Below are positions 174 to 64,000 of a DNA stretch of 64,000 nt, piece after piece. This DNA comes from an uncultured Ardenticatenaceae bacterium. Its GTDB lineage: Bacteria; Chloroflexota; Anaerolineae; Promineifilales; Promineifilaceae. The position numbers and the translations under genes were made by a program. Within the stretch, counting starts at the first letter, position 1. Each line of letters opens with the position of its first letter. The notes under the pieces are model-generated. The model saw nothing but the letters and a program-made list of their open reading frames with translations, was not told the origin of the DNA and did no database searches. The stretch is taken from positions 572 through 64,571 of the forward strand of contig CAYXUZ010000011.1 in the NCBI GenBank assembly GCA_964467705.1, written 5' to 3'.

Positions 174-364
174 GCCAACTTTCACGCACAAAACCACCAT
201 CCACCTTATCGCCGAAGGGGCACGGCCGTGACGTGGTGAAAAAGCAGGTTCCGGTGGGCAAAGGTGGGGCGGCGCGGTGGGGACACCGCCGCAGCCACCA
301 CCACCGCAATCAGAAGACCGCGCCGCAGCAGCATGGGGGTGAGGGAGTGAAGGAGTGCAAATAT

Positions 365-1528
365 TTACCGTAATCCCGTTAAGCTGCGGGCAATGACCAT
401 ACGCTGGATTTCGCTGGTGCCTTCGTAGATTTCAGTAATTTTGGCGTCGCGATAGTACCGTTCCAGGGGCATCTCTTTGCTGTAACCCATACCGCCATGA
501 ATCTGAATCGCTTCTTTGGCGCAGAAGTTGGCCGTTTCGCTGGCAAACAGTTTAGCCATGCTGCTTTCCAGGGAGTACCGTTTGCCGGTGACGGCCGCTT
601 CCTTTTTGGCCAGACATGCCTGGTAAATGAGCAAACGGCTGGCCTCGACGCGCGTTTTCATATCCGCCAGTTTTTGCTGGATCATTTGAAACTGGCCGAT
701 CTTCTGCCCAAACGCTTCCCGTTCTTGCGCATAGGCAATAGAGGCTTCCAACGCAGCTTCGGCAATACCCTGCGCCTGGGAGGCGATACCAATGCGCCCG
801 GCGTCCAGTACCGTCATGGCAATTTTGAACCCTTCGCCTTCCTGTCCCAGCCGATTTTCTACCGGGCAGTGGTAGTTGTCGAAGATGATTTCACTGGTGG
901 CGCTGGCGCGGATGCCCATTTTGGGTTCCGTTTTGCCCCGTTCAAAACCGGGCTGGTCAGTCTCAATGAGGAAGGCGGTGATGCCGCTGGCTCCCTTTTC
1001 GGGGTGGGTGGGGGCGAACAACACAATGATATCGGCATAGGGGGCGGATGTGACCCAGGATTTACGGCCGTTGATCACATAATGTGTCCCGGCTTCATTC
1101 AACACGGCGCGGCTTTTCATGTTGCCCGCATCGCTGCCGCTCATCGGCTCCGTCAGGCTGTAGGCGCCAATCTTTTCGCCACTGGTCACGGGCACAAGAT
1201 ACTTTTGCCGTTGGGCTTCCGTGCCATACTTCATAATGCCGTGACAGTAGAGCGAGTTATTCACCGACATGATGGTGCCATGACTGGCGTCGGCTTTGCA
1301 GATTTCGATGAGGGCCAGGGCATAGGCCAGCGTGTCCATGCCGATCCCGCCATACTGCTCCGGCACTTCAATGCCCATAAAACCTAACTGCCCCATTTTG
1401 CGCACTGTCTCAATGGGAAATTCGCCCGTTTCGTCGTGATGGGCGGCGATGGGGGCAATTTCCTGCTGGGCAAAGCGGCGTGCTTCTAGCTGAATCATGC
1501 GATGTTCTTCAGTGATAAAGTCAAACAT
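365..1528 (-). CDS. Acyl-CoA dehydrogenase (short/branched-chain type)
   Basis: 387-aa ORF. Motifs GAYSLTEPMSGSDAG, GEGFKIAMTVLDAGRIGIA and C-terminal ITEIYEGTSEIQR are typical of FAD acyl-CoA dehydrogenases. Confidence 0.95.
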   Translation of the reverse strand: MFDFITEEHRMIQLEARRFAQQEIAPIAAHHDETGEFPIETVRKMGQLGFMGIEVPEQYGGIGMDTLAYALALIEICKADASHGTIMSVNNSLYCHGIMKYGTEAQRQKYLVPVTSGEKIGAYSLTEPMSGSDAGNMKSRAVLNEAGTHYVINGRKSWVTSAPYADIIVLFAPTHPEKGASGITAFLIETDQPGFERGKTEPKMGIRASATSEIIFDNYHCPVENRLGQEGEGFKIAMTVLDAGRIGIASQAQGIAEAALEASIAYAQEREAFGQKIGQFQMIQQKLADMKTRVEASRLLIYQACLAKKEAAVTGKRYSLESSMAKLFASETANFCAKEAIQIHGGMGYSKEMPLERYYRDAKITEIYEGTSEIQRMVIARSLTGLR

Positions 1529-1554
1529 AGTGGGAACCTCCGTGGTTAGTAATA

Positions 1555-1625
1555 GTGAACAGTGAGCGGTAGGCAGTGAGCAGTAGATCGTTCACCGCTC
1601 ACTGCCCCCTACTAACTGCTCACTG
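1555..1625. repeat. Word hairpin: two copies of CAGTGAGC followed by two copies of GCTCACTG
   Basis: The CAGTGAGC cores lie inside CAGTGAGCGGT (1560-1570) and CAGTGAGCAGT (1574-1584). The complementary GCTCACTG cores lie inside ACCGCTCACTG (1594-1604) and ACTGCTCACTG (1615-1625). The 11-mers pair 1:1 and 2:2 (interleaved); the 8-nt cores can also pair nested. The element sits between two minus-strand genes and overlaps the last codons of 1592-2347. Confidence 0.8.
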
Positions 1626-2347
1626 ATAACAGTCATCATAAACTTCTCAAAATCCTGTGGTGTTAACTCAAAGCCTTCCAGCCAGCGGCGTTGTTCGGCC
1701 AGCCATTGTTTGCCGTCTTTCCCGGCCAACACATCGGCGGGGATTTTTTCGGGACGACTGGGCATGGAGAGGTAGCGGCTGCGGACGTCGGTGGCGTAAA
1801 CGTCGGCGGGGTAGATTTCATGGAAGTGGACACGGCCGTGTTGCGCAATCATCCCCTCTGCTTTTTGGGGAGCGACATAGGTGTAAACAATGACCCGATT
1901 TTCCCCTTCCTGCACCTGCATTGCCAGACAAACCCACTTTTCAGGCACACGCCGTTCACGCCCGCCCCGTTTGTACCCTTTAAGGATGAAGCGCCAGTAC
2001 AATTGATTCATGTTGCCGTTCCAACTGAGGCTGTAGGTGGGCGAATCCATGTCTTGTACCTGGATGCCTTTTTCATCCAGTGTCAGCACCCGGCCGCTGT
2101 GCCAGACGCGCTTGAGACCGTGTTCGATGGCCCAAACAGCCGCCAACGCCAATATCAGGGAACCAGAACAAGCGATGATAAATGTGAAATCTACGAGACG
2201 ACGAGGGGCCACTGCCGGCCATGCGGTATTGAAAAAGATAAAAAAGACGATGATAAACACGAATAAAAGCAGCAGTACGGCCGTGCGCACGCCACTATGT
2301 TCTTGATCTGCATGAAGCACAATGCCAGAGGAAGAAGTAGGTGCCAT
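1592..2347 (-). CDS. Hypothetical membrane protein (2 TM helices plus soluble C-terminal domain)
   Basis: 251-aa ORF. Hydrophobic segments VLLLLFVFIIVFFIFF and IIACSGSLILALAAVWAI. No family recognised. Confidence 0.5.
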   Translation of the reverse strand: MAPTSSSGIVLHADQEHSGVRTAVLLLLFVFIIVFFIFFNTAWPAVAPRRLVDFTFIIACSGSLILALAAVWAIEHGLKRVWHSGRVLTLDEKGIQVQDMDSPTYSLSWNGNMNQLYWRFILKGYKRGGRERRVPEKWVCLAMQVQEGENRVIVYTYVAPQKAEGMIAQHGRVHFHEIYPADVYATDVRSRYLSMPSRPEKIPADVLAGKDGKQWLAEQRRWLEGFELTPQDFEKFMMTVISEQLVGGSER

Positions 2348-2420
2348 GACCCTATTTGTAATCTGCTATGGCAATTCTGGCAACATTCTTGTCTGGTACG
2401 GCCGGATACGCAGGGCTATA

Positions 2421-4196: not shown

Positions 4197-4203
4197 TCAG
4201 GGA

Positions 4204-4623
4204 CTATGTGGGCGCCCACACCTTTTCCCCATTCAAAATACGCTGAATGTGTTCGCCAAAAAGAGGCCCGTTAATGGGCTTCCCTAAAAAGCCATTGAAA
4301 CCAGCTTCACGGGCGTGTGCCACATCTTCACGCATCACATTAGCGGTAACTGCTACTACGGGTATGGCTGCCAACGCTTCATCCTGGCGCATTTCTGCCA
4401 GAATGGCGTAGCCATCTTTTCCCGGAAGTTGCAAATCCAGCAAAACTAGGTCTACACCACGGGGCAATAACGAGCGCAAAAAAGGGAGAGGGTCTTCCGG
4501 CAGCATGAAGATATTGTCACCTGCTACCCCTTCTACTTGCAGCAGTTTGCGCGTAACCATGCGGTTGTTTTCATCATCTTCAACTATCAAAACTCGGACA
4601 TCAGCCAGCGATGGTTTATTCAT
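4204..4623 (-). CDS. Stand-alone response regulator receiver domain (CheY-like)
   Basis: 139 aa. VLIVEDDENNR, phospho-acceptor context DLVLLDLQLPGKDG, and VVAVTANV...GKP. Confidence 0.9.
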   Translation of the reverse strand: MNKPSLADVRVLIVEDDENNRMVTRKLLQVEGVAGDNIFMLPEDPLPFLRSLLPRGVDLVLLDLQLPGKDGYAILAEMRQDEALAAIPVVAVTANVMREDVAHAREAGFNGFLGKPINGPLFGEHIQRILNGEKVWAPT

Positions 4624-4768
4624 AAGGCTGTAGTATAACGATGCAGCTAAAAATGTGTAGCGCCCTGTGATTATTCATGTTACGAAGCCGGATGTGAGTA
4701 ACAGTTGAAGTGAGACGATATTTTGATAAGCTAGTGTCAGATTGCGCAAAAAGGTATCAACTATTCTT

Positions 4769-5110: not shown

Positions 5111-5151
5111 CCTGAACGAAAGCCAATCAATAGTAGGAGATAACAAAGTTC

Positions 5152-14459: not shown

Positions 14460-14553
14460 TCCGCGACCAGTAATCGTCGGAATACGGATTGCGGTTTACG
14501 GGTCACGAATTACGCTTTATACTGCCTACTATCAATTGCGGAGAATAAACAGA

Positions 14554-15144
14554 ATGGCAGAGACAATGATTTTCCCCACCGAAGAAGTCGTGGGGCCAAA
14601 ACAAGGTCACTGGACATATGACGATTACCTCAAGTTGCCGGATGACGGCCGTCGGTATGAGATCATCGAAGGAGTATTATACGTGACCAACGCCCCCGGA
14701 CTTGACCACCAATTTACCGTCTTTGAAATCGCCCGGCAGATGGGCAACTTTGTCATCGAACATAAATTAGGCTACGTCATTACCGCCCCTTTTGAAGTTC
14801 ACCTAGCCGAATATTCTCGCCCTGTTCAGTCTGACGTCCTCTTCATTCGTGCTGAACGTTGGCCTAAGTCCGGCGCTAAATTTTTCACGGGCGCGCCTGA
14901 TCTCATCGTGGAAGTTCTCTCCGACAGCACCGGTCGCACCGATCAATCGGTTAAATTCACTGCCTATGAACAAGCCGGTGTGCCTGAGTATTGGATCGCC
15001 AATCCCAAAACCCGTTCCGTTCAGGTCTTCACCCTATCCGGTCAGGAATACGCCCTGGTCAATCAGTTCATCGGTGAAGAAATCATCCAATCCCACATTT
15101 TTCCCGGCCTGCAAATCACCACCCACACGCTATTCAATCAATAA
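14554..15144 (+). CDS. Uma2-family (DUF820) putative endonuclease
   Basis: YEIIEGVLYV, PDLIVEVLSDST, KFTAYEQAGVPEYWIANP. ATG at 14554. Confidence 0.85.
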   Translation: MAETMIFPTEEVVGPKQGHWTYDDYLKLPDDGRRYEIIEGVLYVTNAPGLDHQFTVFEIARQMGNFVIEHKLGYVITAPFEVHLAEYSRPVQSDVLFIRAERWPKSGAKFFTGAPDLIVEVLSDSTGRTDQSVKFTAYEQAGVPEYWIANPKTRSVQVFTLSGQEYALVNQFIGEEIIQSHIFPGLQITTHTLFNQ

Positions 15145-17918: not shown

Positions 17919-17951
17919 GCTGTTTTCTACCCAAATCGGGTGAAGTGGTTT

Positions 17952-17994
17952 ATGCTACGGATACGGCCGTGACGGACGGCCGTATCCGTAGCAT
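17952..17994 (+). promoter_or_regulatory. Perfect 19-bp-stem hairpin carrying two ACGGCCGT copies and occluding the start codon of the next gene
   Basis: ATGCTACGGATACGGCCGT (17952-17970), loop GACGG, ACGGCCGTATCCGTAGCAT (17976-17994). The ATG of the downstream CDS is at 17993-17995. Confidence 0.7.
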
Positions 17995-19021
17995 GAACGA
18001 GCAACAAGAAGCCCTAACCCCATCGGCCAACTCCCTCTATGAGCTACAAAGCCTGTTAGCGACCCACTACAATTTACAAGAACTCCGCACGCTGGCTTTG
18101 CGGTTCAATCTCGACCTGGAAGATGTGGGGGGCGAAACCAGAGCCGACAAGGCACGTGAACTGACGCTGCTATTTGCCCGGCAAAACAGGTTGACAGAGT
18201 TGTTGACTGCTTTGCAGGAAGAACGTCCGCATGTCAACTGGCCCCACCCCACCCAAGTGGTTGTACCTGTTGTTGAAAAGTGGATATTCTCTCATTGGCT
18301 ACGCGAAAATATATTGGTGATTGGCGGACTGACCGTTGTGCTGCTGTTGAGCATGACGGCCGTGTGGTGGCTGAACGGCCGTGACTCAGACCCAGCCTGG
18401 CATACCGTATCTGGCGGTACCGCCATTTTGGGCACAGCTTCTGAGTTTTGCACACTCCCCGTCCAGCCCTTTCAAATTCAACGTGCCGAGGTGCGCAATC
18501 AGGATTATCTCAACTGTGTTCAGGAAGAGAACTGCGCCCCACCACCGCTCTGGCAAGTTGGCGAAAACGGCTGGACGTATCCGGCAGGCGAGGCTGACCA
18601 CCCCGTCTGGGGGATTAGTTGGAACGATGCCGCTGCTTATTGTGAATCAATTGGCGCACGGTTACCTGACGAGGCGGAGTGGGTGTTTGCCGCCCGTGGT
18701 AATCGCACCGCCAATTACCCCTGGGGGGATGCGTTTGATGGGGCGCTGGGCAATCTGGCGGAATCTGGCAACGGCCGTGATCTGGCTGTTTCCGTGAGTG
18801 CTAACCGCTGCCAGAATCAGCCGGTGTGTGACCTGGTAGGCAATGTGCGTGAATGGGTGCAGGACACGGCCGTGAACGCCTGTTACACCGGCGATGGCAG
18901 CGGCCAGCACATCAGCAAAGGTGGCTCATTTGCCGACAGCGCCGCCACTATCACCCTCTGGACACGGATGCAAAGTGACGAACAACCCTACGTTGGTGTA
19001 CGCTGCGTCCGCGACCAATAA
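17993..19021 (+). CDS. Transmembrane protein: N-terminal effector-associated (death-like) helical domain, TM helix, extracytoplasmic FGE-sulfatase (SUMF1/EgtB-like) domain
   Basis: The N-terminus LYELQSLLATHYNLQELRTLALRFNLDLEDVGG...KARELTLLFARQNRLTELLTAL fits EAD-type adaptor domains. TM helix ILVIGGLTVVLLLSMTAVWWL. FGE motifs HPVWGISWNDAAAYC, RLPDEAEW, GNVREWVQD, GVRCVRD. Confidence 0.75.
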   Translation: MNEQQEALTPSANSLYELQSLLATHYNLQELRTLALRFNLDLEDVGGETRADKARELTLLFARQNRLTELLTALQEERPHVNWPHPTQVVVPVVEKWIFSHWLRENILVIGGLTVVLLLSMTAVWWLNGRDSDPAWHTVSGGTAILGTASEFCTLPVQPFQIQRAEVRNQDYLNCVQEENCAPPPLWQVGENGWTYPAGEADHPVWGISWNDAAAYCESIGARLPDEAEWVFAARGNRTANYPWGDAFDGALGNLAESGNGRDLAVSVSANRCQNQPVCDLVGNVREWVQDTAVNACYTGDGSGQHISKGGSFADSAATITLWTRMQSDEQPYVGVRCVRDQ

Positions 19022-29450: not shown

Positions 29451-30721
29451 TTACCTCTTCATCCGCCGATCAAACTGCCACAACGCTGCCAGGAAAAAGA
29501 ACCCGCCAATGCTCAACAGCACGGCCGCCGGTAACAGCACATCGGCCAGCCCACCTTCATAAATCGTCAACGCCGTCAGCCCATCAATGCCCCAGCGGTT
29601 AATGGTGATCTTGCTCAACTGATCCAGCCAGGCCGGAAAGTTTTGGGCGTTGACAAAATTGCCACCTAACGCCGCAAACACCAACGAAATGACCGAACCA
29701 AAGATGGCGGCCTGATTTGCATCCTTCGCAAACGCGGCAATCAACATCCCCAGGCCGGTATAGGCCAGCACTATCGCCAGCACCATCAGCGCCAACCCTG
29801 CGGCCGAGTTCCCCCAATTAAGTTGAAACAGCAACCGTGAGGCAAACACAAAGACCACAAACTGGATAATTCCGGCCAGAAAAACGCCGCCTACCTTACC
29901 CATCAAAAGTTCGCTGTGGCGGATGGGGGTGGTCAGCAGCCGGGGCAGTGTGCCCGCCTTTTCTTCTTCCAAAATAGAGCGGGTGCTGTCCATCATGGCA
30001 AACATCAGGAAAAGAATGCCCATGCTGGGCGCAAAAAAGGCAAACGGGCTGATTTCCACCGGCTCCTCTTCTTCGCCTACCGGAATCTGGCGCAGGGTAA
30101 TGGCCGCACCCCGGTTGGTCGCGCTCTGGTTTGTTCCACCCAACTGTGTGCCAATTCCTCCAGCACCGTTCCTAACTGCGTTAAGGCTGGCCCTAACACG
30201 GCCGTTTGCCCCATTAACTGCTCCACCGTCACCTGCGCCCCAATCGCGCCCGTGTTAAAGCTGTTGGTAATCTGCACCACAATGCCGCGCACAATATTCG
30301 GCGTGATGGTGGAACTGGGATCGGCGTAAAAGGCAACAATAGCTGGCGATGGCGAGTCGGTGTTGCCGCGCACGGCCGTCGAAAAGCCTACCGGAATATG
30401 CACCACCGCCCGCGCCTCCCCCTGCTGCACGATAGCCCGCGCCTCGTCCAGGTCAGCCATCTCCGTCACCAGCAGCAGTTCCGCCAACTCACCCGCCTGC
30501 ATCGCCTCTACAAACTGCACCCCCATTTCCCCTTCGTCATCATTCACCACCAGCACCGGAATCTGGTCAAAGGGCACACTGCTGCCGCCCATCAAAAAGT
30601 TGCCAAACGACGCGCCAATGATGAACGACAGCACCAACGGCGCCAGAATCATCAACAACAGCGCATTCCGATCCCGAAATGTAATGCTCAAATCCTTCCA
30701 GGTAATCGCCAAAATTCTCAT
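29451..30721 (-). pseudogene. ABC-2 type transporter permease interrupted by a frameshift near 30115-30140
   Basis: ORF 30077-30721 encodes the N-terminal TM helix plus loop (MRILAITWKDLSITFRDRNALLLMILAPL...). ORF 29451-30143 encodes the C-terminal TM bundle in another frame. Together they match the 408-aa paralogue. Confidence 0.6.
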
Positions 30722-31848: not shown

Positions 31849-31906
31849 TTTAACGGCCGTGCCCCCACCGCAGATGTGCCAGAAGTCACATCCAGGTCAC
31901 TATGAC

Positions 31907-37692: not shown

Positions 37693-39981
37693 TCAAGACG
37701 CGGCTCGTGGCCGGTCAAATTTCGTGATGTTCAGGTGTTCCATCACGCCACCCATGTGTCGCATCTGGTTAACCATGTGATTTACCAACAACCCATCCAT
37801 ATCTTGCTGACCACTGGTATTTCCATCCCACAGGGCAATCATTCTCACCCGGTCAATACCCAAAACAAGTGATGAGTAAAGCGCCCACCGGTTATTCCGC
37901 TCATACAAATTGTCTCCCTTTTTCACTTTGCCCAGGCGTTCCGGCTGGAAGCGGATGTTCACCAGAGGGTGATTACGCAGGGCATAATATCGCTCCACCC
38001 AACGCTCGCCACCGTAGCTAATAAATTGTTTGATATACAAGGGTTCTGCGTAAGGAAGGTAGATATTCACTTGTAGGCCACGCTCCAGGCAGCACTCAAC
38101 AAAAATAATATCGCTGCCACAAGAGACGCCTGCGAGATATGCCCGGTCATTGGCGTCGGCTTTTGATTTGTCCAATGCATCGTTTATCTGTTTACGCACG
38201 GTGTCTTCAAGGTCGGATGGGAAGCGCTTGACGGCCCGGTCTGGGCGGTCCAACATGTGTCCAGTAAAAACGAAGGAGCGCACGGCCGTCGTCACGGCCG
38301 TTTTGCTCTGATCATCCACCAAATCATCTTTCTGAATGCGCGCCAATTCGGCCTGCAAGGTCTTCATGGCCGCATCCACATAAATCTCGCGCATGTCCAA
38401 TGCTTTCAAAATCCTTAGCTGCTGCAATTCAGATTCTAAAAAGAAGGCATTTTTGCGGGTGGCCGTTAGCGCCTTCCGGTAAGCACGAATCACCTGGCGT
38501 GGCCGCTCGGCCGTCATAACCCGCAAATTTGCCAATGAAACCAATGTCCAATAATCGCTGGTCTCGTTCTGAATACGAGCCTCCAGAGAAAAGGTTAGCG
38601 CCCCCACCAGACTGGGTAGCGTCTCCCGCACGGCCGTGATCTCCGGGTCTGGGTCTTCCTTATCGTCAAACTCATCAGCCAGTTTCACCAGAATCGTAGC
38701 CAAAGTATACGCATTCACCGCCGGATAATACTGGTTCAAATCCCAATAATACCCCCGCAAATAGGTCTGGTAAGACATCAACAACCAATGGTAACTCTCA
38801 AACGCTTCCTGCAATCGCTGCCGGTCATCGGCCGTGTTGATCCAGGACTCCATCCACATGTCCTTATAGATGCGCCCCAGGTAAGCGATTGCTTCCGTAT
38901 CGTGCGGATCATCTGCCAACAAGGTTTCCAGTTTCACAATCGCTTCATCCACCCGGCCCAACCTGTTCAGAAAATAAGCCTCTTGCCGTCGAAAGTCTGC
39001 ATTGTTGTTGTTGATTTCCAATCCCTGGCGATATTGTTGCAGCGCTAATTCATCCCGCCCCATGCTGCGTAGCGCGCGCCCCGCTTCGGCTACCGCCTCC
39101 TCCTTGATGAGCGGATTGCTAATCTCTTCTGTAAGCACCAGAATATCGCCAATACGCTTTTCCCGCTGGGCAATGGTCACGCGCTCTCTCCATTCGTTAT
39201 ATTCGCGCCAAAATCCGGTAGCTAATGGCGTGCGCAGGGTACTCCGGTCGGCTTCCGCCAGACCAGTAAGCAGATTAAAGATGGGGCTGTGAATGGCTTC
39301 GGCATCCGAGGCATACGTGTCGCGGCAGACACGAGCAATAGCCTGCCGATCTTTCTCCAGAAATTCGGGGTCGGGCACACCGTCCGCATTGGTATGGTAG
39401 GGGATGGTACGCACGTTGAAAATGTCAAACGGCATGTAAGCACGCCCTGATTGGATATGCACGACACCCCGTTTCCGAAAAGCATGGCGTACCCCCAATT
39501 CATAAAAGACATTGGCGTTATCAATGCTCATATCGGCAATGACCAGATCAGCCAGCAGCAATTCCTGAAACATGTCGGTGAGAATATCGCCGCTGACGGT
39601 TTCTTCATCAGCGCGGAAGGCTTCAAAGCCAGCTTCTTCCAGAACCGGTTTGATGAGGTCGGCATAAATAGCATTAAAATCAAGTGTCTGCCCCTCAAAC
39701 CCTTTCTTCTTACCAAAGGGCATCACTACAAAGGCGTGGGGACGAGAAGTTGGCCCTTTGTCATCCATTTTGTGCGTTTCTTCAAAGAGTTCTTGTAACG
39801 ATGTTTCAGTTTCTTCAACTGGCTGTGGTAAGCTGGCTTTTGCCTGCCCTGCTAGCGTGGCCTGGGCGGGGGGCTGAGTGACAGTAGTGGTTGGTGTAGC
39901 CTGTTTTTTGCGCACGGCCGTGCCCTTCCCATTGGCGCCTTCTGCAATTTGCAATGTGGATTCCTTTGTGTCATCTACCAT
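37693..39981 (-). CDS. Three-module protein: NDT/TIR-like N-glycosidase-fold domain, TPR (ASK1/DUF4071-type) region, C-terminal SLOG-like nucleotide-binding domain
   Basis: ATG 39981 is preceded by GGAGG (39989-39993). NDT-like region (about 39409-39741): FVVMPFGKK...LLADLVIADMSIDNANVFYELGVRHA. TPR/DUF4071-like region (about 38329-39246): LALQQYRQGLEIN, AYFLNRLGRVDEAIVKLETLL, YYPAVNAYTLATIL. SLOG-like region (about 37729-38280): SFVFTGHMLDRPDRAVKRFP, AYLAGVSCGSDIIFVECCLERG, VRMIALWDGNTSG. Confidence 0.65.
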   Translation of the reverse strand: MVDDTKESTLQIAEGANGKGTAVRKKQATPTTTVTQPPAQATLAGQAKASLPQPVEETETSLQELFEETHKMDDKGPTSRPHAFVVMPFGKKKGFEGQTLDFNAIYADLIKPVLEEAGFEAFRADEETVSGDILTDMFQELLLADLVIADMSIDNANVFYELGVRHAFRKRGVVHIQSGRAYMPFDIFNVRTIPYHTNADGVPDPEFLEKDRQAIARVCRDTYASDAEAIHSPIFNLLTGLAEADRSTLRTPLATGFWREYNEWRERVTIAQREKRIGDILVLTEEISNPLIKEEAVAEAGRALRSMGRDELALQQYRQGLEINNNNADFRRQEAYFLNRLGRVDEAIVKLETLLADDPHDTEAIAYLGRIYKDMWMESWINTADDRQRLQEAFESYHWLLMSYQTYLRGYYWDLNQYYPAVNAYTLATILVKLADEFDDKEDPDPEITAVRETLPSLVGALTFSLEARIQNETSDYWTLVSLANLRVMTAERPRQVIRAYRKALTATRKNAFFLESELQQLRILKALDMREIYVDAAMKTLQAELARIQKDDLVDDQSKTAVTTAVRSFVFTGHMLDRPDRAVKRFPSDLEDTVRKQINDALDKSKADANDRAYLAGVSCGSDIIFVECCLERGLQVNIYLPYAEPLYIKQFISYGGERWVERYYALRNHPLVNIRFQPERLGKVKKGDNLYERNNRWALYSSLVLGIDRVRMIALWDGNTSGQQDMDGLLVNHMVNQMRHMGGVMEHLNITKFDRPRAAS

Positions 39982-39994
39982 AAGGTTGCCTCCA

Positions 39995-42235
39995 TTAACC
40001 CTGTTCATCCTGGGCTGCTTTGGCTAATGCCTGTTTAATCGCTTCGTCCGAAACCTGTAAGCCCTTTTCTAACAGGCGATCCACAGCATCGTCAACGGCC
40101 GTATCTGACGCCGATCCATTTGTTGGCTCAGTTTGTTCACCATTTTCCGGCCCGCTGCCAGCTTCAGAGGTGAACTGAATTGGATATTTAATGTCCGGTG
40201 TGGCTTCGTAGGTAACATTAGCCCATTGCTCGTGTACGGCCGTACCCATGTCCTCAATAACCGCCGTAACGGGGGTAAAAGTGACCACAAATTTGACCTG
40301 TTCACCCGCCTTTTGGCGGAGTGCCGCCGCTTCTGTCACGGCCGTTTCCACTACTTCTTGGCCTGTTTCCACCCAAGCGGCCGCCTCGGCCGCAACCGCA
40401 TCGCGGGCCTCGGCAGACTGGGTAACGGCTGCATCCATAGCCTCTTGAGCAGTCTCTGACCAGGCTGCCGCTTCTTCAGCAATGCTTGTCGCGGCAGTTT
40501 CACGGATAGCGGCCGATTGGGCCGCGGCCGTGTCTACCGCATCTTGGGCTGTCTCTGACCAGGCCGCAGTCTCCGCAGCCACGGCAGCAGCCGTGCCTTC
40601 TCGCACAGCGCCAACTTCGGCAATAGCTTCAGCGGTGCTTTCCACTGCCGCTTCTCGCCACGCAGACGCTTCTTCCAGGGCCATATCCCGGCTGGCTTCC
40701 ATAGCCAGCCGAGTGGCATCTGCCTCAGCCGCCGCCGCTTCGGCCGTTTCGGCCATACTCTCGCGGGCCGCCACCGATTGAGCGGTTGCCATTGTCATGG
40801 CTTCTTGCGCTGCCTGTCCCCAGGCCACGGCTTCAGCGGCCGTGGCCGCACGGGCAGTGGCAGATTGGGACCCGGCCGTGTCCACCGTCTCTTGGGCGGT
40901 CTCCCCCCAGGCGACAGCTTCGGCGGCGGCGGCTTCGCGCACAACAGCAGATTGAGCAACAGCAGCAGCGGCGCTATCCTGTGCTGTTTCACGCCAGGCA
41001 GCCGCTTCTTCCAGAGCCGCGTCCCGGCTTGTTTCCAGGGCCATGCGGGCGGCAGCAGCTTCACTGGCCGCCGCATCAACCGATTCACCAATGGTCTGGT
41101 TGAGTGCCATCGCTTCGCTAGACACGGCCGTGACCATACCAGACACCGTTGCCGCTGCATCTGTGGCCACAGCTGCCAACTGCTCTGTAGCCTGTGCAAA
41201 AACGGCCTGCGATTCCGCGAGTAGTTTCTTCTGCAACTCTGCATGTGTTGAAGCCGACACCTGTATCATTTCTTCAACCAGTTTTTTATCTTCATCCTCA
41301 ACACCAGCCAGTGTCTCTTGCATCGAGCGCAGCCACTCACTATTTTGGGCAAACATCAGATTTTCAGTAGCCAGTACCATCTTGTAAAATTCCGAGTCTG
41401 TTTGTTCGGTGCTGGATAATGCAAACCAATAATCGCGGATAATTGCCAGCTCCAATTTTACTTTACTGTAATTGGCAATGGTTTGTTCACGGTTACGCAA
41501 TTCTTCCCATCCGGTCAGGGCTGCCGCAAGCGAGGCGGTTAGCGCGACCCAAACAGCAAAAGGGCCACCCAGAGCAGCCAGCAATGAGCCGGCTCCACCC
41601 ATCAATAAAATTGCAATCGTCAGATTACGTTTGGCTTTGCCCAGCCGCACAATGCGTCCTTCATGCCAGGAAAGTTGTTCTTGTAAACGGTATCTCATGT
41701 ACTCTTCTGGCGTGAGGTCGGCAAAACCAGGATCACTGTTAGGATTGTCGGGAGAATAATAAAGGGGCAAAACACCGCGGTAAGGTTCAGTATCTAGCTT
41801 TTGACCGCTGGCCTTGTATATCTGACGCTGGATATTGGCCAGCCGATTGCTGAGCCACTTATTGCGGTCGGGATACTGTTTTAGCACCGTGCGGTAAATG
41901 TAGATTTCCTTTTTGATCTCTTCTGCCCCGGCACGCATGGCCAGCCAACGGCCGTCGCCCAACTCCCGACTGGTGAAGGCAGCAAGGATTGAACCCGCCA
42001 GTGGTGTGAGAATCAGCATCACTTTCAGTGCAGCTTGTGCTGTGACGGGAAATTCTGGACTATACACATCGGTAACGATTGCCAAAACAGTAGCCACAAT
42101 ACCCAGGATTGCTACCCATTTACGCAGTCTTAGATGGCGTTTGCTTAGTTTGTCGGCATTTGTGTCCAGTTCAGCATGGTGCATCCACGCCTTCTCTAAA
42201 ATAGCCGGGCGGCTGATCTCGGTTGCTGATTCCAT
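39995..42235 (-). CDS. Membrane protein with two tandem SLATT-like 2TM modules and a C-terminal Trp-marked Ala/Glu repeat region
   Basis: AGGAG RBS. Module 1 (about 41861-42193): WVAILGIVATVLAIVTDV / ALKVMLILTPLAGSILAAF, then RWLAMRAGAEEIKKEIYIYRT. Module 2 (about 41411-41713): LTIAILLMGGAGSLLAALGG / FAVWVALTASLAAALTGW, then REQTIANYSKVKLELAIIRDYW. Repeats lie at 40310-41083. Confidence 0.65.
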   Translation of the reverse strand: MESATEISRPAILEKAWMHHAELDTNADKLSKRHLRLRKWVAILGIVATVLAIVTDVYSPEFPVTAQAALKVMLILTPLAGSILAAFTSRELGDGRWLAMRAGAEEIKKEIYIYRTVLKQYPDRNKWLSNRLANIQRQIYKASGQKLDTEPYRGVLPLYYSPDNPNSDPGFADLTPEEYMRYRLQEQLSWHEGRIVRLGKAKRNLTIAILLMGGAGSLLAALGGPFAVWVALTASLAAALTGWEELRNREQTIANYSKVKLELAIIRDYWFALSSTEQTDSEFYKMVLATENLMFAQNSEWLRSMQETLAGVEDEDKKLVEEMIQVSASTHAELQKKLLAESQAVFAQATEQLAAVATDAAATVSGMVTAVSSEAMALNQTIGESVDAAASEAAAARMALETSRDAALEEAAAWRETAQDSAAAAVAQSAVVREAAAAEAVAWGETAQETVDTAGSQSATARAATAAEAVAWGQAAQEAMTMATAQSVAARESMAETAEAAAAEADATRLAMEASRDMALEEASAWREAAVESTAEAIAEVGAVREGTAAAVAAETAAWSETAQDAVDTAAAQSAAIRETAATSIAEEAAAWSETAQEAMDAAVTQSAEARDAVAAEAAAWVETGQEVVETAVTEAAALRQKAGEQVKFVVTFTPVTAVIEDMGTAVHEQWANVTYEATPDIKYPIQFTSEAGSGPENGEQTEPTNGSASDTAVDDAVDRLLEKGLQVSDEAIKQALAKAAQDEQG
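40310..41083 (-). repeat. About seven degenerate 29-32-aa protein repeats (A.AAAW.ETAQ...DTA..QSA..R) inside the SLATT-like gene
   Basis: EEAAAWRETAQDSAAAAVAQSAVVRE / AEAVAWGETAQETVDTAGSQSATARA / AEAVAWGQAAQEAMTMATAQSVAARE / EEASAWREAAVESTAEAIAEVGAVRE / AETAAWSETAQDAVDTAAAQSAAIRE / EEAAAWSETAQEAMDAAVTQSAEARD / AEAAAWVETGQEVVETAVTEAAALRQ. Confidence 0.8.
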
Positions 42236-49057: not shown

Positions 49058-49549
49058 ATGCTTGAAATTCAATTCCGCCCTGCCCACGTCAAGGACGAAG
49101 CTCAGCTTCAAGCCATCCGCCACGCCGCCTTTGCGCCTGTGTTCACCTCGTTCCGCGCCCTCCTCGGCGACGAAATCTACGACCTGGCGCAACGGCGGCA
49201 CGATGAAGCCCAGGGAGGATACCTGACGTCACTGTTGGCAGCGGATTCTGGATGGGATCTGTACGTAGCGCAATTGGGTAACGAAATCGTCGGCTTCGTG
49301 TCTGTCCAGTTTAACCGGGAAACACTTGTGGGTGAGATAGGTCTGAATGCGGTTGACCCGGCGTGGGCCGGCCAGGGGATTGGCGCGGCGATGTATGAGT
49401 TTGTACTGGCGCGCATGAAGGAGGCGGGGATGCAGGTAGCGACTGTTTCCACCGGGGGTGACCCCAGCCACGCCCCGGCCCGACGCGCTTATCAAAAGGT
49501 AGGATTTGACGCGGCGGTCCCCAGTGTGTGGATGTGCCGCAAGCTCTGA
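49058..49549 (+). CDS. GNAT-family N-acetyltransferase
   Basis: The acetyl-CoA site GLNAVDPAWAGQGIGAAM (Q/RxxGxG/A) and the C-terminal ARRAYQKVGF. Confidence 0.85.
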   Translation: MLEIQFRPAHVKDEAQLQAIRHAAFAPVFTSFRALLGDEIYDLAQRRHDEAQGGYLTSLLAADSGWDLYVAQLGNEIVGFVSVQFNRETLVGEIGLNAVDPAWAGQGIGAAMYEFVLARMKEAGMQVATVSTGGDPSHAPARRAYQKVGFDAAVPSVWMCRKL

Positions 49550-51582
49550 TGGAACAGGAACGACACATTTACCTGGAAGACATTCCGCTGGATGAGGCAT
49601 GGGCGGCCTGGCGAACAGCGTTAGCCGAAGCAGGATTATGGCAGCCTTTGAAAGCAGAAGAAGTGACGCTGGCCGAGGCCAACGGCCGTACCACCGCCAC
49701 TGCCATCTGGGCCAGACTTTCCTCCCCACACTACCACGCCAGCGCCATGGACGGCTTTGCCGTGCGCGCCGAGGACAGCCACACCGCCACCGAAACCAGC
49801 CCCGTCCGCTTGACGCTGGTGGACGATTTTGATCCCGCCAACACCTCCGACCTGCGCCCGGCTAAAGCGGTCAACACCGGCCATCCCCTGCCCACCTGGG
49901 CCAACAGCGTGGTGATGATTGAACATACGCAGCCGGTAAGGGACGAACACGGCCGTGCCGCCATCGAAATTCGCGCTTCCTTACCACCCTGGCAGCATGT
50001 CCGGGCCATGGGCGAAGATATGGTGGCTACAGAGTTGGTACTGCCCGCCAACCATACCCTGCGCCCGGTGGATTTGGGCGCGCTGGCCGGGTCGGGGCAC
50101 ACGGCCGTAACCGTCTACCGCCGTCCCCGTGTGGCCATCATCCCCACCGGCTCCGAACTCGTCGCCCCGGAAGATGTGGCCCGCAACGGCCCCTATCCCG
50201 GCCAGATCATCGAGTACAACAGCCTGGTGCTGGCCGCCCAGGTGGAAAATTGGGGCGGCCAACCCACCCGTTGGCCGATAGTGCCCGATGAATTTGCGGC
50301 CATTCAAACGGCCGTGCGCCAGGCCGCCCGCACCCACGACCTCATCCTGCTCAATGCTGGCTCCTCCGCCGGTTCCGAAGATTACACCGCCCATGTAGTG
50401 CAATCGCTGGGCACATTGCTGGTGCATGGTGTGGCGGTTCGCCCCGGCCATCCAGTCATTTTAGGCATGATCCAATCTGACAAAGTGACAAGGTGGCAAG
50501 GTGACACGGTGACACCCTCCCACCCCATCGCGCCCATCATCGGCGTCCCTGGCTACCCGGTCAGCGCGGCACTGACGGGCGAGATTTTTGTAGAGCCGCT
50601 GCTGGCGCGGTGGCGGGGGCAACCACCGCACCAGCCGCAGACTCTCACGGCCGTGCTCACCCGCAAAGTGGTTTCCCACACCGGCGATGACGATTTTGTG
50701 CGCGTGGCGGTGGGCAAAGTGGGCGGGCGCACCCTGGCCACGCCCATCAGCCGGGGGGCGGGCGTCATCTCCTCACTGGTACGGGCGGATGGCATTATGC
50801 GCATTCCCCGTTTTAGCGAAGGGGCGGATGTGGGCACGGCCGTGACCGTCCACCTCTACCGCCCCGCCCACGAGATCGCCAATAGCATCCTGGCCATCGG
50901 CAGCCACGATCTCACGCTCGATCTCCTGGCCCAATTTCTGGCCGAACGCAGTCAACATCGGTTAGTATCCGCCAATGTGGGCAGCCTGGGCGGGCTGGTG
51001 GCGCTGCGACGCGGCGAAGCCCACCTGGCAGGTTCCCACCTGCTTGATCCCGCAACGGGCACATACAACATCAGCTACATCCACCAATACCTGCCCGGCG
51101 AGAACATCATGCTGGTCACGCTGGTTGGCCGGGAACAGGGGTGGATGGTGGCAAAAGGTAATCCCAAACGGGTGCGTGGTTGGGCAGATGCCGCTAACGA
51201 GGATGTGCAAATTGTGAACCGGCAACGGGGGGCGGGCACACGGGTGCTGCTGGATTATGAATTGGGCAAATTAGGGATTACGCCGGAGCAGGTGCGGGGC
51301 TACGGCCGTGAAGAGTACACCCATCTGGCTGTGGCTGCGGCCGTTGCTTCTGGCACCGCCGACGCCGGGTTGGGCATTCGCGCTGCCGCCCGTGCGCTGG
51401 AGCTAGACTTTGTGCCCCTGGCACATGAGCAGTATGACCTGGTGATTCCGCAACTCTATTTTGAAGGGGAACTATTACGGCCGTTGCTGGATTTATTGCA
51501 CGACGCGGATTTCAGGATGGCTGTGGCTACTATGCCCGGTTATGATATTGCCCCAATGGGGCAGACCAGGAGTGTTAGGTGA
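49549..51582 (+). CDS. moeA: Molybdopterin molybdenumtransferase MoeA fused to a C-terminal periplasmic-binding-protein-like domain
   Basis: ATGA overlap with the GNAT stop. MoeA motifs SPHYHASAMDGFAV, IIPTGSEL, LLNAGSSAGSEDY, HGVAVRPGHP, GVPGYPVSA. C-terminal IGSHDLTLDLL...GSLGGL...ADAGLGI is PBP-like. Confidence 0.85.
   Translation: MEQERHIYLEDIPLDEAWAAWRTALAEAGLWQPLKAEEVTLAEANGRTTATAIWARLSSPHYHASAMDGFAVRAEDSHTATETSPVRLTLVDDFDPANTSDLRPAKAVNTGHPLPTWANSVVMIEHTQPVRDEHGRAAIEIRASLPPWQHVRAMGEDMVATELVLPANHTLRPVDLGALAGSGHTAVTVYRRPRVAIIPTGSELVAPEDVARNGPYPGQIIEYNSLVLAAQVENWGGQPTRWPIVPDEFAAIQTAVRQAARTHDLILLNAGSSAGSEDYTAHVVQSLGTLLVHGVAVRPGHPVILGMIQSDKVTRWQGDTVTPSHPIAPIIGVPGYPVSAALTGEIFVEPLLARWRGQPPHQPQTLTAVLTRKVVSHTGDDDFVRVAVGKVGGRTLATPISRGAGVISSLVRADGIMRIPRFSEGADVGTAVTVHLYRPAHEIANSILAIGSHDLTLDLLAQFLAERSQHRLVSANVGSLGGLVALRRGEAHLAGSHLLDPATGTYNISYIHQYLPGENIMLVTLVGREQGWMVAKGNPKRVRGWADAANEDVQIVNRQRGAGTRVLLDYELGKLGITPEQVRGYGREEYTHLAVAAAVASGTADAGLGIRAAARALELDFVPLAHEQYDLVIPQLYFEGELLRPLLDLLHDADFRMAVATMPGYDIAPMGQTRSVR
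50478..50516 (+). repeat. In-frame block of GTGACA / GTGGCAAG repeat words inside moeA
   Basis: TGACAAAGTGACAAGGTGGCAAGGTGACACGGTGACACC encodes (S)DKVTRWQGDTVT. It lies between the conserved PGHPVILG and GVPGYPVS motifs. Confidence 0.75.
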
Positions 51583-57880: not shown

Positions 57881-58059
57881 TTTTTTTGACCTCCGTGTAT
57901 TGTTCCCCTACGGCCGTCGCATTTCTGCCGGCAGGAATGTTGTGCCCACTATACCCCATTTTGTCAGGTTCAAACAATCACTTTGGCAGACCACAATGGC
58001 GCACGGCCGTACCCATCCCCCACATGCCACAAAACAATGGTTTCCCGGTGCAGATGAGG

Positions 58060-59547: not shown

Positions 59548-59566
59548 TACGATTTACTCCTTAATT

Positions 59567-59635
59567 GGGAGATTGGAGATTGGAGATGAGAGATTGTTAG
59601 TCGCAATCTCTCATCTCTAGTCTCTCATCTCTGAT
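59567..59635. repeat. Word hairpin (GGAGAT / ATCTC words)
   Basis: GGGAGATTGGAGATTGGAGATGAGAGATTG ... CAATCTCTCATCTCTAGTCTCTCATCTCTGAT. Confidence 0.8.
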
Positions 59636-59781
59636 TTTTCATGCTCTGGGATTTGAAATGTCACGGCTTTCCCCGCCGGATTCAATCGCTCGATTATACA
59701 CACACTGCACCGGGCAGGCGCAGCATGGATAAGGAAACAGGAAAACCCTTATGAACCGGCTTAATGGGGGAAGGGAATCGG

Positions 59782-61083: not shown

Positions 61084-61212
61084 TTGTCTATCGCCGCGCA
61101 CATCCAGACATCTGATTTCTTTGAGAAATCGGATGTCTGGCCTTGCCATCGCGTGTAAAAAACAGGATTTGCAGGATAATACAACAGAAGCAACTTGCAA
61201 AACAGGAAGATT

Positions 61213-62436: not shown

Positions 62437-62439
62437 CTT

Positions 62440-62473
62440 AGACCCTAAGGGTTTTTAGAAACCCTTAGGGTCT
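62440..62473. repeat. REP-like hairpin AGACCCTAAGGGTTT-TTAG-AAACCCTTAGGGTCT (copy 2)
   Basis: Differs from the 56417-56452 copy only in the loop (TTAG vs TCAG). Lies between the TraB stop and the next start. Confidence 0.9.
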
Positions 62474-62480
62474 TCGGTTG

Positions 62481-63287
62481 ATGATGATGAAGTGGCTCAA
62501 ACGAATTTTGTTGGGGTTAGGGGGAATGATTGCCGTCGTGATTGTAATCTTCACGGCCGTGATTGTGTATGATTCGCTGTTTGGTCACGACTCGACGGAG
62601 TATACGAATGTGACGTTTACGGATGCGGCGGGTCAGGAATTGCATGGGTATCTGGCGCTGCCGCAGGGGGAAGGGACACACCCGGCGGTGTTGCTCATCC
62701 ATGAATGGTGGGGACTGAATGAAGGGATGCTGGTGCTGGCGGAGGCGCTGGCGGCCGAGGGGTATGTGGTGCTGGCGGCCGATGCGTATCGAGGACAGGT
62801 GACAGACAAGTTCCCCCGTGCCATTTATCTGCGATTAGGCACACCGGAAGAGCAGGTGTTTAATGATATTGATGCGGCGTTGGCTTATTTGCGCAGCCGC
62901 CCGGAAGTGGATGATGAGCGTGTGGCTTCAATGGGCTTTTGTTTTGGCGGCGGCCATTCGCTGCAATTGGGGATGCGTCAGTCGGAAAATCTGGCGTTGA
63001 CGATTTTGTATTATGGGGCGGTGGTAACGGAGCCGGATTTATTACGGCCGTTGACCGGTAATCAACCCGTCCTCGGCATCTTTGGCGCGGAGGATGCTTC
63101 CATTCCCACCGCCGATGTGCTGGAATTTGAAGCCGCCCTCAACAGCCTGAACATCCCCAATGAAATCATCATCTACGAAGGGGTAGGCCATGCTTTTCTG
63201 AATGAAGAAAACTACGACGAACCGGGCGCAGCGGGCGACGCCTGGCAGCAAACGCTGGACTTTTTGGCGACGAGTCTCAACGAGTAG
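62481..63287 (+). CDS. Dienelactone hydrolase family protein
   Basis: N-terminal anchor, HPAVLLIHEWWGLNE, nucleophile context MGFCFGG, and GVGHAF. Confidence 0.88.
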   Translation: MMMKWLKRILLGLGGMIAVVIVIFTAVIVYDSLFGHDSTEYTNVTFTDAAGQELHGYLALPQGEGTHPAVLLIHEWWGLNEGMLVLAEALAAEGYVVLAADAYRGQVTDKFPRAIYLRLGTPEEQVFNDIDAALAYLRSRPEVDDERVASMGFCFGGGHSLQLGMRQSENLALTILYYGAVVTEPDLLRPLTGNQPVLGIFGAEDASIPTADVLEFEAALNSLNIPNEIIIYEGVGHAFLNEENYDEPGAAGDAWQQTLDFLATSLNE

Positions 63288-63305
63288 TCAGCCAGAAGAA
63301 AGAGA

Positions 63306-63358
63306 ATCCACAGATTCCGCAGATTTCACAGATAAGAAAATCTGTGCCCTCTGTGGAT
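63306..63358. repeat. Word hairpin (CACAGAT / ATCTGTG words)
   Basis: ATCCACAGATTCCGCAGATTTCACAGAT ... AAAATCTGTGCCCTCTGTGGAT. Outer stem ATCCACAG/CTGTGGAT. Confidence 0.8.
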
Positions 63359-63380
63359 AAGTTTTGAAGGAGTGTAGCCT

Positions 63381-64000
63381 ATGACCGATTCGCATGTTCA
63401 AACCCATTACCGTACTTGCAATTTATGTGAGGCGATGTGTGGCCTGGAGATTAAGGTGGAAGGGCAGCACATTCTCTCGATCAAGGGGGACAAGGATGAC
63501 CCGTTTAGCCGGGGGCACATTTGCCCGAAGGCGACAGCGTTGGGGGATATTTACCATGACCCGGACAGGTTGAAGTATCCGGTGCGGCGCACGGCCGTTG
63601 GCTGGGAGCGCATCAGTTGGGAGGAGGCGCTTGACGAGGTGGTCAGTAATATCCAGCGCATTCAGGCGACACACGGCCGTAACGCCATCGGCGTCTATCT
63701 GGGCAACCCCAACGTGCATAATCTGGGTCTCATTTTGTACAACGCTCCCTTCATCCGCAGTTTGAAGACCAAGAACCGCTTCTCGGCTACGTCGGTGGAT
63801 CAACTGCCGAGCCAGTACGCCGCCTATCTGATGTTTGGGCATCAGTTGTTGTTTCCAGTGCCGGATGTAGATCGCACGCACTATTTTTTGATGCTGGGGG
63901 CAAATCCGCTGGCCTCGAATGGCAGTTTGATGACGGCCGCAGGTATTGAGAACCGGCTCAAGGCATTGCAAAAGCGGGGTGGGAAGCTGGTGGTGATTGA
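63381..64000 (+). CDS. Molybdopterin oxidoreductase (formate dehydrogenase/BisC-like), N-terminal part; continues beyond the window
   Basis: GAAGGAG RBS. The frame stays open to the window edge. The 4Fe-4S motif is CNLCEAMCGL...GHICPK, followed by GVYLGNPNVHN and LMLGANPLASNGS. Confidence 0.88.
   Translation, partial: MTDSHVQTHYRTCNLCEAMCGLEIKVEGQHILSIKGDKDDPFSRGHICPKATALGDIYHDPDRLKYPVRRTAVGWERISWEEALDEVVSNIQRIQATHGRNAIGVYLGNPNVHNLGLILYNAPFIRSLKTKNRFSATSVDQLPSQYAAYLMFGHQLLFPVPDVDRTHYFLMLGANPLASNGSLMTAAGIENRLKALQKRGGKLVVI

Follow-up and report, generated by a model that had tools for sequence, protein, structure and literature searches.

A CGGCCG-core octamer palindrome iterated along the DNA of an uncultured Ardenticatenaceae bacterium and its relatives, with dialects of the flanking base pair

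Why is one word of eight base pairs written 155 times into 64,000 nucleotides of bacterial DNA? The question is raised by a stretch of an uncultured Ardenticatenaceae bacterium (GCA_964467705.1, contig CAYXUZ010000011.1, positions 572-64,571 of the forward strand), which we call the window, and by the palindrome ACGGCCGT. The best known case of this kind is the highly iterated palindrome (HIP) HIP1 of cyanobacteria. Three decades after HIP1 became known, the debate on where it comes from and what it does continues, with mismatch-repair strand marking, a recombination hotspot and an uptake signal among the proposals; one reason for this stalemate is that there was essentially one word in one phylum. 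The original prediction for the window, made from the letters alone, proposed a HIP-like word that is new, acts at the DNA level and leaves an imprint on the proteome. This reading holds, since ACGGCCGT is the single enriched palindrome, occurs in all frames and in spacers, and is the near-exclusive spelling of the peptides that it encodes.

The original prediction had counted about 154 copies, and the exact search gives 155 (2.4 per kb; 2,420 per Mb). In dinucleotide-preserving shuffles of the window (n=100) we expected 1.32 +/- 1.15 copies, with a maximum of 6. On both strands together there are 310 occurrences, against Markov expectations of 2.9 (order 0), 2.6 (order 1), 5.6 (order 2) and 11.8 (order 3), which means ratios of observed to expected (O/E) of 107, 117, 56 and 26 respectively; the higher-order expectations are inflated by the sub-words of ACGGCCGT itself. 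The enrichment first announced was 80-fold, a slightly conservative figure, as composition gives about 105-117-fold. When the octamers of the window were scored with a Markov-corrected expectation, as had been suggested, ACGGCCGT ranked first both by count and by z-score (z = 87). All the other high-scoring octamers are overlapping shifts of ACGGCCGT, the second palindromic octamer has only 6 copies and ACGATCGT has none, whereas 155 of the 211 CGGCCG hexamers are flanked by A...T and are thus inside ACGGCCGT. The original prediction was to fall if the count lay far below about 100, or if many unrelated octamers were enriched alike; neither is the case.

The word is not restricted to one genome. 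With the MoeA-fusion protein of the window (49528-51582) as the query we collected 80 loci from species-representative genomes, around 20 kb per genome. The nearest relatives are the Chloroflexota/Anaerolineae metagenome-assembled genomes (MAGs) CFX8, CHL1 and CFX4, with 84-87% amino-acid identity in MoeA, followed by MAGs of Ca. Leptofilum (Chloroflexota; Ardenticatenia; Promineifilales in the NCBI taxonomy), "Promineifilaceae" and "Ardenticatenaceae". A metagenome scan for strain-level relatives gave 72-83% as the best match, and an exact-protein look-up of the MoxR of the window returned no record. ACGGCCGT is the top octamer, at 1.0-2.3 per kb, in about 30 of the MoeA loci, which come from independently assembled MAGs, and five further metagenome contigs bear ACGGCCGT or its relative GCGGCCGC. 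The enrichment of the core CGGCCG (O/E 3-12) is limited to one clade of the MoeA tree, a single-gene neighbour-joining tree that is indicative only, and the Anaerolineales- and Caldilineales-like outgroups have an O/E of 0-2. Judged from these sequences, the enrichment of ACGGCCGT and CGGCCG is a property of the whole clade.

To locate the copies we predicted genes with a simple self-trained model, which placed 56 of them over 92% of the window. The genes are ordinary chromosomal ones, such as those for an acyl-CoA dehydrogenase, QueA, a tyrosine recombinase, HolB, the MoeA fusion, MoxR/DUF58 and UDP-glucose dehydrogenase. Fully within predicted genes, on both strands, we found 150 copies, while 4 are intergenic and 1 straddles a gene end with its stop codon (48964). 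The genic copies are read as ACG-GCC-GTn in 77 cases, as nAC-GGC-CGT in 52 and as nnA-CGG-CCG-Tnn in 21. The distribution originally described (genes on both strands, spacers and all three frames) is borne out by this placement.

The consequence for the proteins is clear. Thr-Ala-Val (TAV) was observed 78 times in the window versus 10.4 expected and Asp-Gly-Arg (DGR) 26 times versus 4.5, so that the TAV and xGR imprint claimed before is real and these are the first and the second most over-represented tripeptides. ACGGCCGT spells 77 of the 78 TAV, where codon usage predicts around 15%, and nACGGCCGT spells 52 of the 55 Gly-Arg pairs preceded by D, N, H or Y, where the product of codon fractions predicts around 5%; the tripeptides that resemble TAV (SAV, TAI, TGV) are below expectation. 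One might think of selection at the protein or codon level, in favour of Thr-Ala-Val or Asp-Gly-Arg as a motif or of a codon pair, as precisely these two tripeptides lead the list. However, one octamer gives unrelated peptides in three frames and also stands in spacers, the 77 TAV use one of 16 possible spellings, and sister lineages over-use AAA or PAG instead, each matching its own palindrome. The frame and synonymous-spelling tests refute this explanation, and we give it practically no credence. The constraint on ACGGCCGT acts at the DNA level and not at the protein level, because the three frames yield different peptides, one spelling dominates and the enrichment in spacers is equal once G+C is considered.

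This last point needs the relatives. In the window alone the spacers have 0.8 copies per kb versus 2.5 in coding DNA. The pooled ratio of non-coding to coding density was 0.73 in the window clade (the window with its nearest relatives) and 0.50 in the Leptofilum group, where G+C alone predicts 0.56 and 0.43. Therefore, a depletion of the spacers as a real feature was ruled out after pooling and correction; their density is lower because their G+C is lower.

The copies are spaced close to randomly, with a mean of 412 bp, a coefficient of variation of 0.90 and a minimum of 12 bp. Six pairs are less than 30 bp apart, the counts per gene are Poisson-like (chi-square p = 0.12) and at least one copy was found in 47 of the 56 genes. 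Adjacent copies do not exclude each other. Beyond the 8 bp nothing is fixed: in the window clade no flanking position carries more than 0.2 bit of information, and this takes the form of a weak symmetric context GGnC-ACGGCCGT-GnCC of about 16 bp whose downstream C's persist in all three frames. Therefore, the copies are not parts of a longer repeat. A high copy number could also be expected from mobile or repetitive elements, such as repetitive extragenic palindromes (REP), miniature inverted-repeat transposable elements (MITE) or arrays like the clustered regularly interspaced short palindromic repeats, or from an assembly artefact. However, the flanks are unconserved apart from weak single-base preferences, 97% of the copies lie in frame in ordinary genes, no tRNA genes and no Rfam features were found within the window, and more than 30 MAGs, assembled independently, have the word at orthologous codons. 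REP and MITE are extragenic imperfect palindromes of 20-40 bp, and here just 8 bp are fixed. Variable flanks, genic placement and orthologous sites thus refute this explanation, the chance of which is negligible.

More can be learnt from the words that differ from ACGGCCGT at a single position. We counted them in two pools, the window plus its three nearest relatives (126 kb) and 23 loci of the Leptofilum group (381 kb). Exact copies exceed one-mismatch variants by 7:1 in the first pool and by 4:1 in the second, whereas in relatives without the enrichment (517 kb) the ratio is 0.1. Where the mismatch falls on positions 2-3 or on the mirrored 6-7, the O/E is 0.0-1.0 (window clade) and 0.3-0.9 (Leptofilum group), mostly 0.3-0.6, and for the central positions 4-5 it is close to background or higher (0.6-1.9). 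Enrichment is confined to variants of the outer position, namely TCGGCCGT/ACGGCCGA (A to T), 5.5-fold, and GCGGCCGT, 1.3-2.7-fold. Nearly every position for ACGGCCGT that the proteins tolerate is filled and the near-misses have been absorbed.

The base pair that flanks the core is not the same in all members of the clade, and the loci could be classified into the following dialects:

i) A...T, that is ACGGCCGT itself, in most of the enriched lineages. The next shell also differs within this group, as the window clade favours C-ACGGCCGT-G and the Leptofilum group AA-ACGGCCGT-TT (69% A at -1).

ii) G...C, that is GCGGCCGC, the NotI word, in the loci L020, L021 and L219, with 25, 45 and 26 copies respectively; 70 of the 85 cores of L020 and L021 together have this flank.

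iii) C...G, that is CCGGCCGG, in L018, where it accounts for 52 of the 80 cores (52 copies in 22 kb). In this dialect, as in ii), the outer shell C-...-G is favoured.

iv) R...Y, the degenerate form RCGGCCGY, in L026.

v) The bare hexamer CGGCCG with little or no flank preference and an O/E of 3-8, in L034, L041 and L059, which are MAGs of Promineifilum sp., and in L023, L025, L027, L030, L028 and L043. The Promineifilum sp. loci have 5-7 CGGCCG cores per kb at 64-69% G+C. In this group the phenomenon may be in a relaxed state or still in its ancestral one.

Among the genomes of the relatives, NZ_OZ244997.1, JADJXK010000002.1 and NZ_CBDCWX010000005.1 (Ca. Leptofilum) bear ACGGCCGT, JAHDWJ01 and JAGNBF01 bear GCGGCCGC and JACKCB010000002.1 bears CCGGCCGG, while CP070708.1 and OZ252150.1 are not enriched. 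The proteins show a separate mark for each dialect. The window clade has 135 TAV versus 19 expected (132 of them spelled by ACGGCCGT) and the Leptofilum group 364 versus 59 (346 spelled by ACGGCCGT). The GCGGCCGC lineage has 72 AAA versus 15 expected, 61 of which are spelled by GCGGCCGC, and the CCGGCCGG lineage 18 PAG versus 3 expected, with 17 spelled by CCGGCCGG.

A comparison of orthologous genes had been proposed in order to see how sites arise, and we made it on a codon alignment of 79 MoeA orthologues, 26 of them from ACGGCCGT lineages (coordinates of the window sites in Table 1). Columns 157, 610, 1161 and 2553 hold the word in 17-25 of these 26 sequences, and at the shared columns the non-enriched orthologues have other amino acids: LGR where the enriched ones have NGR, EAV or DAV for TAV, YER for YGR, GDR for NGR and AAV for TAV. 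Therefore, ACGGCCGT sites arose through amino-acid replacement, for instance from LGR to NGR and from EAV to TAV. The amino acid follows the flank base of the lineage, as column 157 in L018 reads P-G-R spelled CCGGCCGG; column 1161 in the Promineifilum loci reads A-A-V spelled GCGGCCGT, and at column 2507 the GCGGCCGC lineages have GCGGCCGC. Most GCGGCCGC sites, however, occupy other columns of the alignment than the ACGGCCGT sites, and therefore the change of dialect was accompanied by a turnover of sites.

Once present, the sites are maintained in position between relatives. Between the window and the loci L001 and L003 (7.3 kb aligned, 86.5% identity) 20 of 20 copies were kept, versus 38.6% of all octamers, and in 14 other pairwise comparisons at 79-92% identity 273 of 308 word sites were kept, versus 21-59% for the control. 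At 70% identity, between the window and the Leptofilum group, 38% of the word sites but only 10% of random or composition-matched octamers are kept; for all pairs below 75% identity the figures are 55% and 9%. One site of the window has decayed to ATGGCTGT, by two C-to-T changes on the same strand, one in each CpG of the word.

In the sense of Robinson 1995 and Elhai 2015, ACGGCCGT has the testable properties of a HIP: it is an extreme outlier, dispersed, conserved in excess and found throughout a clade together with derivatives. HIP1 itself (GCGATCGC) reaches 300-2,700 copies per Mb in cyanobacteria with an O/E of 55-228, and the window has 2,400 per Mb with an O/E of around 100. Both are 8-bp palindromes and the sole outlier word of their genomes, both are spread over genes and spacers, and in both the sites are kept more than control octamers. 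Furthermore, in both the 6-bp core is a site of the type II methyltransferase type that is little enriched outside the 8-mer, the one-off variants deviate chiefly at the outer positions (a pattern described by Elhai) and lineage-specific extensions retain the palindrome. Nevertheless, ACGGCCGT is not HIP1 proper, as word, core and phylum differ. The core is CGGCCG instead of CGATCG and lacks an internal GATC, therefore enzymes of the DmtA/DmtC type cannot be its partners, and the phylum is Chloroflexota. Many cyanobacteria commonly have one-off variants at positions 2-3 and 6-7, which are here at or below background, and a single clade has here flank pairs of four kinds (A.T, G.C, C.G and R.Y), with switches between them. 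For HIP1 a periodicity on the scale of 10 kb has also been reported.

Other HIPs are known from cyanobacteria, of the GGCGCC type in Calothrix PCC 7103, GCsGC in Cyanothece PCC 7822, rCCGGy in Oscillatoria PCC 10802 and GGGATCCC in Synechococcus OS-A/B'. From these it is seen that particular lineages can replace the iterated word, and that it tends to match the specificity of a resident methyltransferase. However, they are sporadic cases of single genomes, while here the core is common to a clade and several dialects are each present in several genomes. In the searchable literature, in whose coverage subscription-only papers are not included, we found no prior description of ACGGCCGT or of any HIP in Chloroflexota, in line with the original prediction, whose author was not aware of any description of the word.

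Since HIP1 has been linked to DNA uptake, the same has to be asked here, i.e. whether fragments that bear the word are preferentially taken up or recombined, as with the DNA uptake sequences (DUS) of Neisseria, the uptake signal sequences (USS) of Pasteurellaceae or Chi. DUS and USS occur about once per kb, accumulate in coding DNA at tolerant positions, leave a peptide imprint and have a core with dialects, and a drive-like origin has been proposed for them. The present word resembles this syndrome, with 1.5-2.4 copies per kb, mostly genic and at tolerant positions, a peptide imprint, more perfect than one-off copies, and lineage dialects around a conserved core like those of Neisseriaceae DUS. 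Recent work on HIP1 moreover reports enhanced transformation and a correlation with DNA-transfer genes. Nevertheless, the known uptake sequences are asymmetric and often paired in terminators, and Chi is asymmetric and co-oriented with replication, whereas ACGGCCGT and all its dialects are strict palindromes without orientation; only 4 of the 155 copies are intergenic, and neither the spacers nor terminator-like inverted pairs show an excess.

Mobile DNA adds a further argument. We scanned IMG/VR for two copies of ACGGCCGT 4-34 bp apart, a search with many chance hits, and found contigs that bear the word at 3-4 per kb: L101 (IMGVR_UViG_3300033417_000002), L157, L081, L096 and L182. L101 encodes ParA, an FtsK-like ATPase, a transglycosylase, RadC and a P22-antirepressor-domain protein, and L157 encodes ParB. 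By their genes, which do not establish a phage identity, these contigs have the appearance of mobile elements that reside in the clade. Their density, at or above that of the chromosome, is hard to explain by homologous replacement via transformation and agrees with a process to which all DNA replicated in these cells is exposed. A signal for uptake or recombination has some claim to attention, and we still hold it unlikely.

The copies could also be binding sites of an abundant dimeric nucleoid-associated protein that structures or segregates the chromosome, each site being weakly beneficial and selected. The palindromy and the weak context of about 16 bp would suit the footprint of a dimer, larger than a typical methyltransferase site, and the positions of the sites are conserved. 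On the other hand, the spacing is Poisson-like and all tolerable positions are saturated, with copies 12-25 bp apart, unlike an architecture that depends on density or spacing, and the repeated flank switches with wholesale turnover of sites would need thousands of sites to co-evolve. We find this explanation quite improbable.

What remains to be explained can be stated precisely. One requirement of the data is a recogniser that is symmetric, reads CGGCCG with a conserved core and can evolve in its reading of the next one or two base pairs. A second is a directional process that completes near-matches, keeps perfect sites, is blind to coding and is limited by protein tolerance. The process is site-autonomous and not density-limited, as shown by the close copies and the Poisson-like spacing and counts per gene. 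The causes first listed (methylation-linked repair bias, recombination or uptake, gene conversion) were non-committal, and what the data leave of them is a directional process of this kind, with near-matches as its substrate.

The type II enzymes EagI (CGGCCG) and NotI (GCGGCCGC) recognise exactly the core and one of the dialects, therefore proteins that read CGGCCG with or without the outer G.C pair exist; to our knowledge neither ACGGCCGT nor CCGGCCGG is a known enzyme specificity. Targets of active restriction are usually avoided in the host genome, and ACGGCCGT is enriched around 100-fold. Our tentative proposal, with a probability of around 0.45, is that ACGGCCGT is a HIP whose word is the site of a dimeric recogniser of the EagI/NotI class, probably a modification enzyme, and that it spreads by a site-autonomous bias of repair or recombination. 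The word would be the target of a resident, possibly orphan, DNA modification enzyme of this class. When a mismatch in or beside the word is resolved, following replication or strand invasion, the strand taken as the template would be marked by the word in its fully modifiable or hemimodified form, so that errors and heteroduplexes that complete the word would be retained and those that break it reverted. The result would be a site-autonomous ratchet, in effect a biased gene conversion, by which tolerable near-matches become perfect sites and are then held. We infer both the nature of the recogniser and the strand choice as the directional step.

This is a generalised form of the ratchet of Elhai for HIP1, with two differences: the flank is here not always a G beside the methylated C, and no saturation at one site per kb is seen. 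Strand discrimination by hemimethylation requires a palindrome. We favour the modification-linked explanation because palindromy is needed for that discrimination, because the core and one dialect are type II specificities, because only one-offs at the outer positions are enriched, as a ratchet predicts, and because mobile elements bear the word. The enrichment of around 100-fold is also about the correction factor of mismatch repair, as would be expected if replication errors that complete the word escape correction. Methylated HIP1 raises transformation in Synechococcus in a homology-dependent way; this matches a strand choice in favour of the marked strand, and the modification-linked explanation would thus cover this result as well. 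In the part of the Nanomotif supplement (bioRxiv 10.1101/2024.04.29.591623) considered here, CGGCCG carries N4-methylcytosine at its fourth base in the anaerobic digester bin 1.215 and 5-methylcytosine at the same base in the ZymoFecal bin 2.196. Hence, as far as that part goes, enzymes that modify the core exist in the wild, in environmental and faecal MAGs of unknown taxonomy; ACGGCCGT, GCGGCCGC and CCGGCCGG are absent as motifs from the same portion of its tables.

Several observations weigh against this proposal. Among the 56 proteins of the window no DNA methyltransferase, Vsr-type nuclease or other reader was found with Pfam, NCBIfam and PADLOC; the only methyltransferases there are of the RNA type (SpoU, FtsJ). 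The search for a methyltransferase specific for CGGCCG or ACGGCCGT that the original prediction recommended was run on the window and on the loci of the relatives, and it yielded none that could be tied to the word. For the relatives we matched six-frame translations of 3.1 Mb with regular expressions (m5C motifs IV/VI, Vsr GCFWH and [DSN]PP[YFW]), and around 850 kb of CGGCCG-enriched DNA gave no driver candidate, a result that at around 20 kb per genome is uninformative rather than negative. Substitutions at the sites between relatives changed C2, C5 and C6 to T twice each, so in these small counts there is no hot cytosine and therefore no visible signature of 5-methylcytosine. Classical very-short-patch repair, which turns T:G into C:G, cannot by itself fix A.T flanks. 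Finally, static sequence comparison fits a mechanistic drive and weak selection per site in a large population alike, and cannot separate them. As for very-short-patch repair in general, the Dcm/Vsr system of E. coli raises its cognate word of the CCWGG type and lowers the deamination product CTWGG. However, it acts on T:G mismatches only, its effect is modest and not 100-fold, and no Vsr was found here.

Two candidates for a driver were rejected. The sole match of the regular expressions in a word-bearing contig is a DNA methyltransferase of 320 amino acids of the DPPY type (beta-class N6/N4), directly downstream of MoeA in L201 (10757-11716, minus strand). The other loci with the word lack a counterpart of it, and the system is probably specific to the strain. 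The window has a putative restriction endonuclease of the Uma2 family (PF05685), which matches the PADLOC candidate system PDC-S03. The family is expanded in cyanobacteria and was considered as a HIP partner, but only 2 homologues were found in 846 kb of enriched DNA.

Apart from the word, a few other genes of the window deserve mention. Two large neighbouring genes are candidates for a pair that acts in conflict or signalling. The first encodes the protein of 771 amino acids with the peptide SKTAVTTAVRS, which had been described as SLOG-like; the peptide is there, but the label is not sustained, as Pfam detects TPR-S and MAP3K_TRAF_bd and no SLOG domain, and PADLOC gives a weak match to a TIR effector at residues 88-208. 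Its neighbour, of 746 amino acids, has a SLATT_1 two-transmembrane effector domain. Elsewhere, an Effector-associated domain 7 (EAD7) is joined to an FGE-sulfatase domain, and the gene before it encodes 876 amino acids without a confident family. An ABC-2 permease is apparently split in two overlapping open reading frames, due to either a frameshift (pseudogene) or a sequencing error.

Table 1. Features of the window and their positions (no strand applies where "none" is given)
Feature	Position	Strand	Remarks
Dispersed ACGGCCGT array	222..63680	none	155 copies; first 222-229, last 63673-63680
Intergenic ACGGCCGT copies	222-229, 31853-31860, 57910-57917, 58003-58010	none	by the gene model
Two ACGGCCGT copies 12 bp apart	38282..38301	-	encode TAV-T-TAV in the TPR-S protein
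Other tight ACGGCCGT pairs	17963/17976, 18356/18375, 33062/33083, 54926/54949, 12234/12259		coordinates from the exact search
MoeA-fusion ACGGCCGT, N-G-R	49682..49689	+	nAC-GGC-CGT; column 157; 22/26; non-HIP mostly L-G-R
MoeA ACGGCCGT, T-A-V	50308..50315	+	ACG-GCC-GTn; column 1161; 25/26; non-HIP E-A-V or D-A-V
MoeA ACGGCCGT, Y-G-R	51302..51309	+	column 2332; 11/26; non-HIP Y-E-R
MoeA ACGGCCGT, L-R-P-L	51477..51484	+	nnA-CGG-CCG-Tnn; column 2507; 13/26; non-HIP L-A-P-L or L-Q-P-L
Decayed MoeA site ATGGCTGT, M-A-V	51517..51524	+	22/26 relatives have ACGGCCGT, T-A-V
Block syntenic with L001 and L003	49528..57419	none	20 ACGGCCGT copies, all conserved
Uma2-family putative restriction endonuclease	14536-15144	+	PF05685
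Protein of 876 amino acids	15288-17918		before the EAD7 gene
EAD7 with FGE-sulfatase	17945-19021	+
Split ABC-2 permease	29451-30721	-	PF12698 positions 4-131 (30077-30721) and 139-347 (29451-30143)
Candidate conflict/signalling pair	37693-42235	-	TPR-S gene and SLATT_1 gene
TPR-S gene	37693-40008	-	771 amino acids

Taken together, we consider that this is probably a new, order-wide HIP family in filaments of the Promineifilales-like Chloroflexota, with a CGGCCG core, repeated switches of the flank (A.T, G.C, C.G, R.Y) and a site-autonomous drive that rewrites proteins. If this is true, HIPs would be a general outcome of recognisable molecular machinery and not a cyanobacterial curiosity, and, through the co-variation of genes and motifs, the switches of dialect would offer phylogenetics a way to find this machinery. 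ACGGCCGT provides a second, independent instance of a HIP, with a different core, as extreme as HIP1 and with natural "specificity mutants" among close relatives; a gene family that tracked both the enrichment of the core and the flank dialect would be the driver. Many of the MAGs of the relatives are nanopore assemblies, so that methylation at the word could be read from existing data. For these lineages themselves, a process at the DNA level can impose on the proteome a 5-7-fold excess of given tripeptides (TAV, AAA or PAG by lineage). Phylogenetics and selection tests have to reckon, in these lineages, with the convergent amino-acid replacements that it can force at orthologous positions. 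Furthermore, binning and the assignment of mobile elements to these hosts gain a sharp compositional marker in the word.

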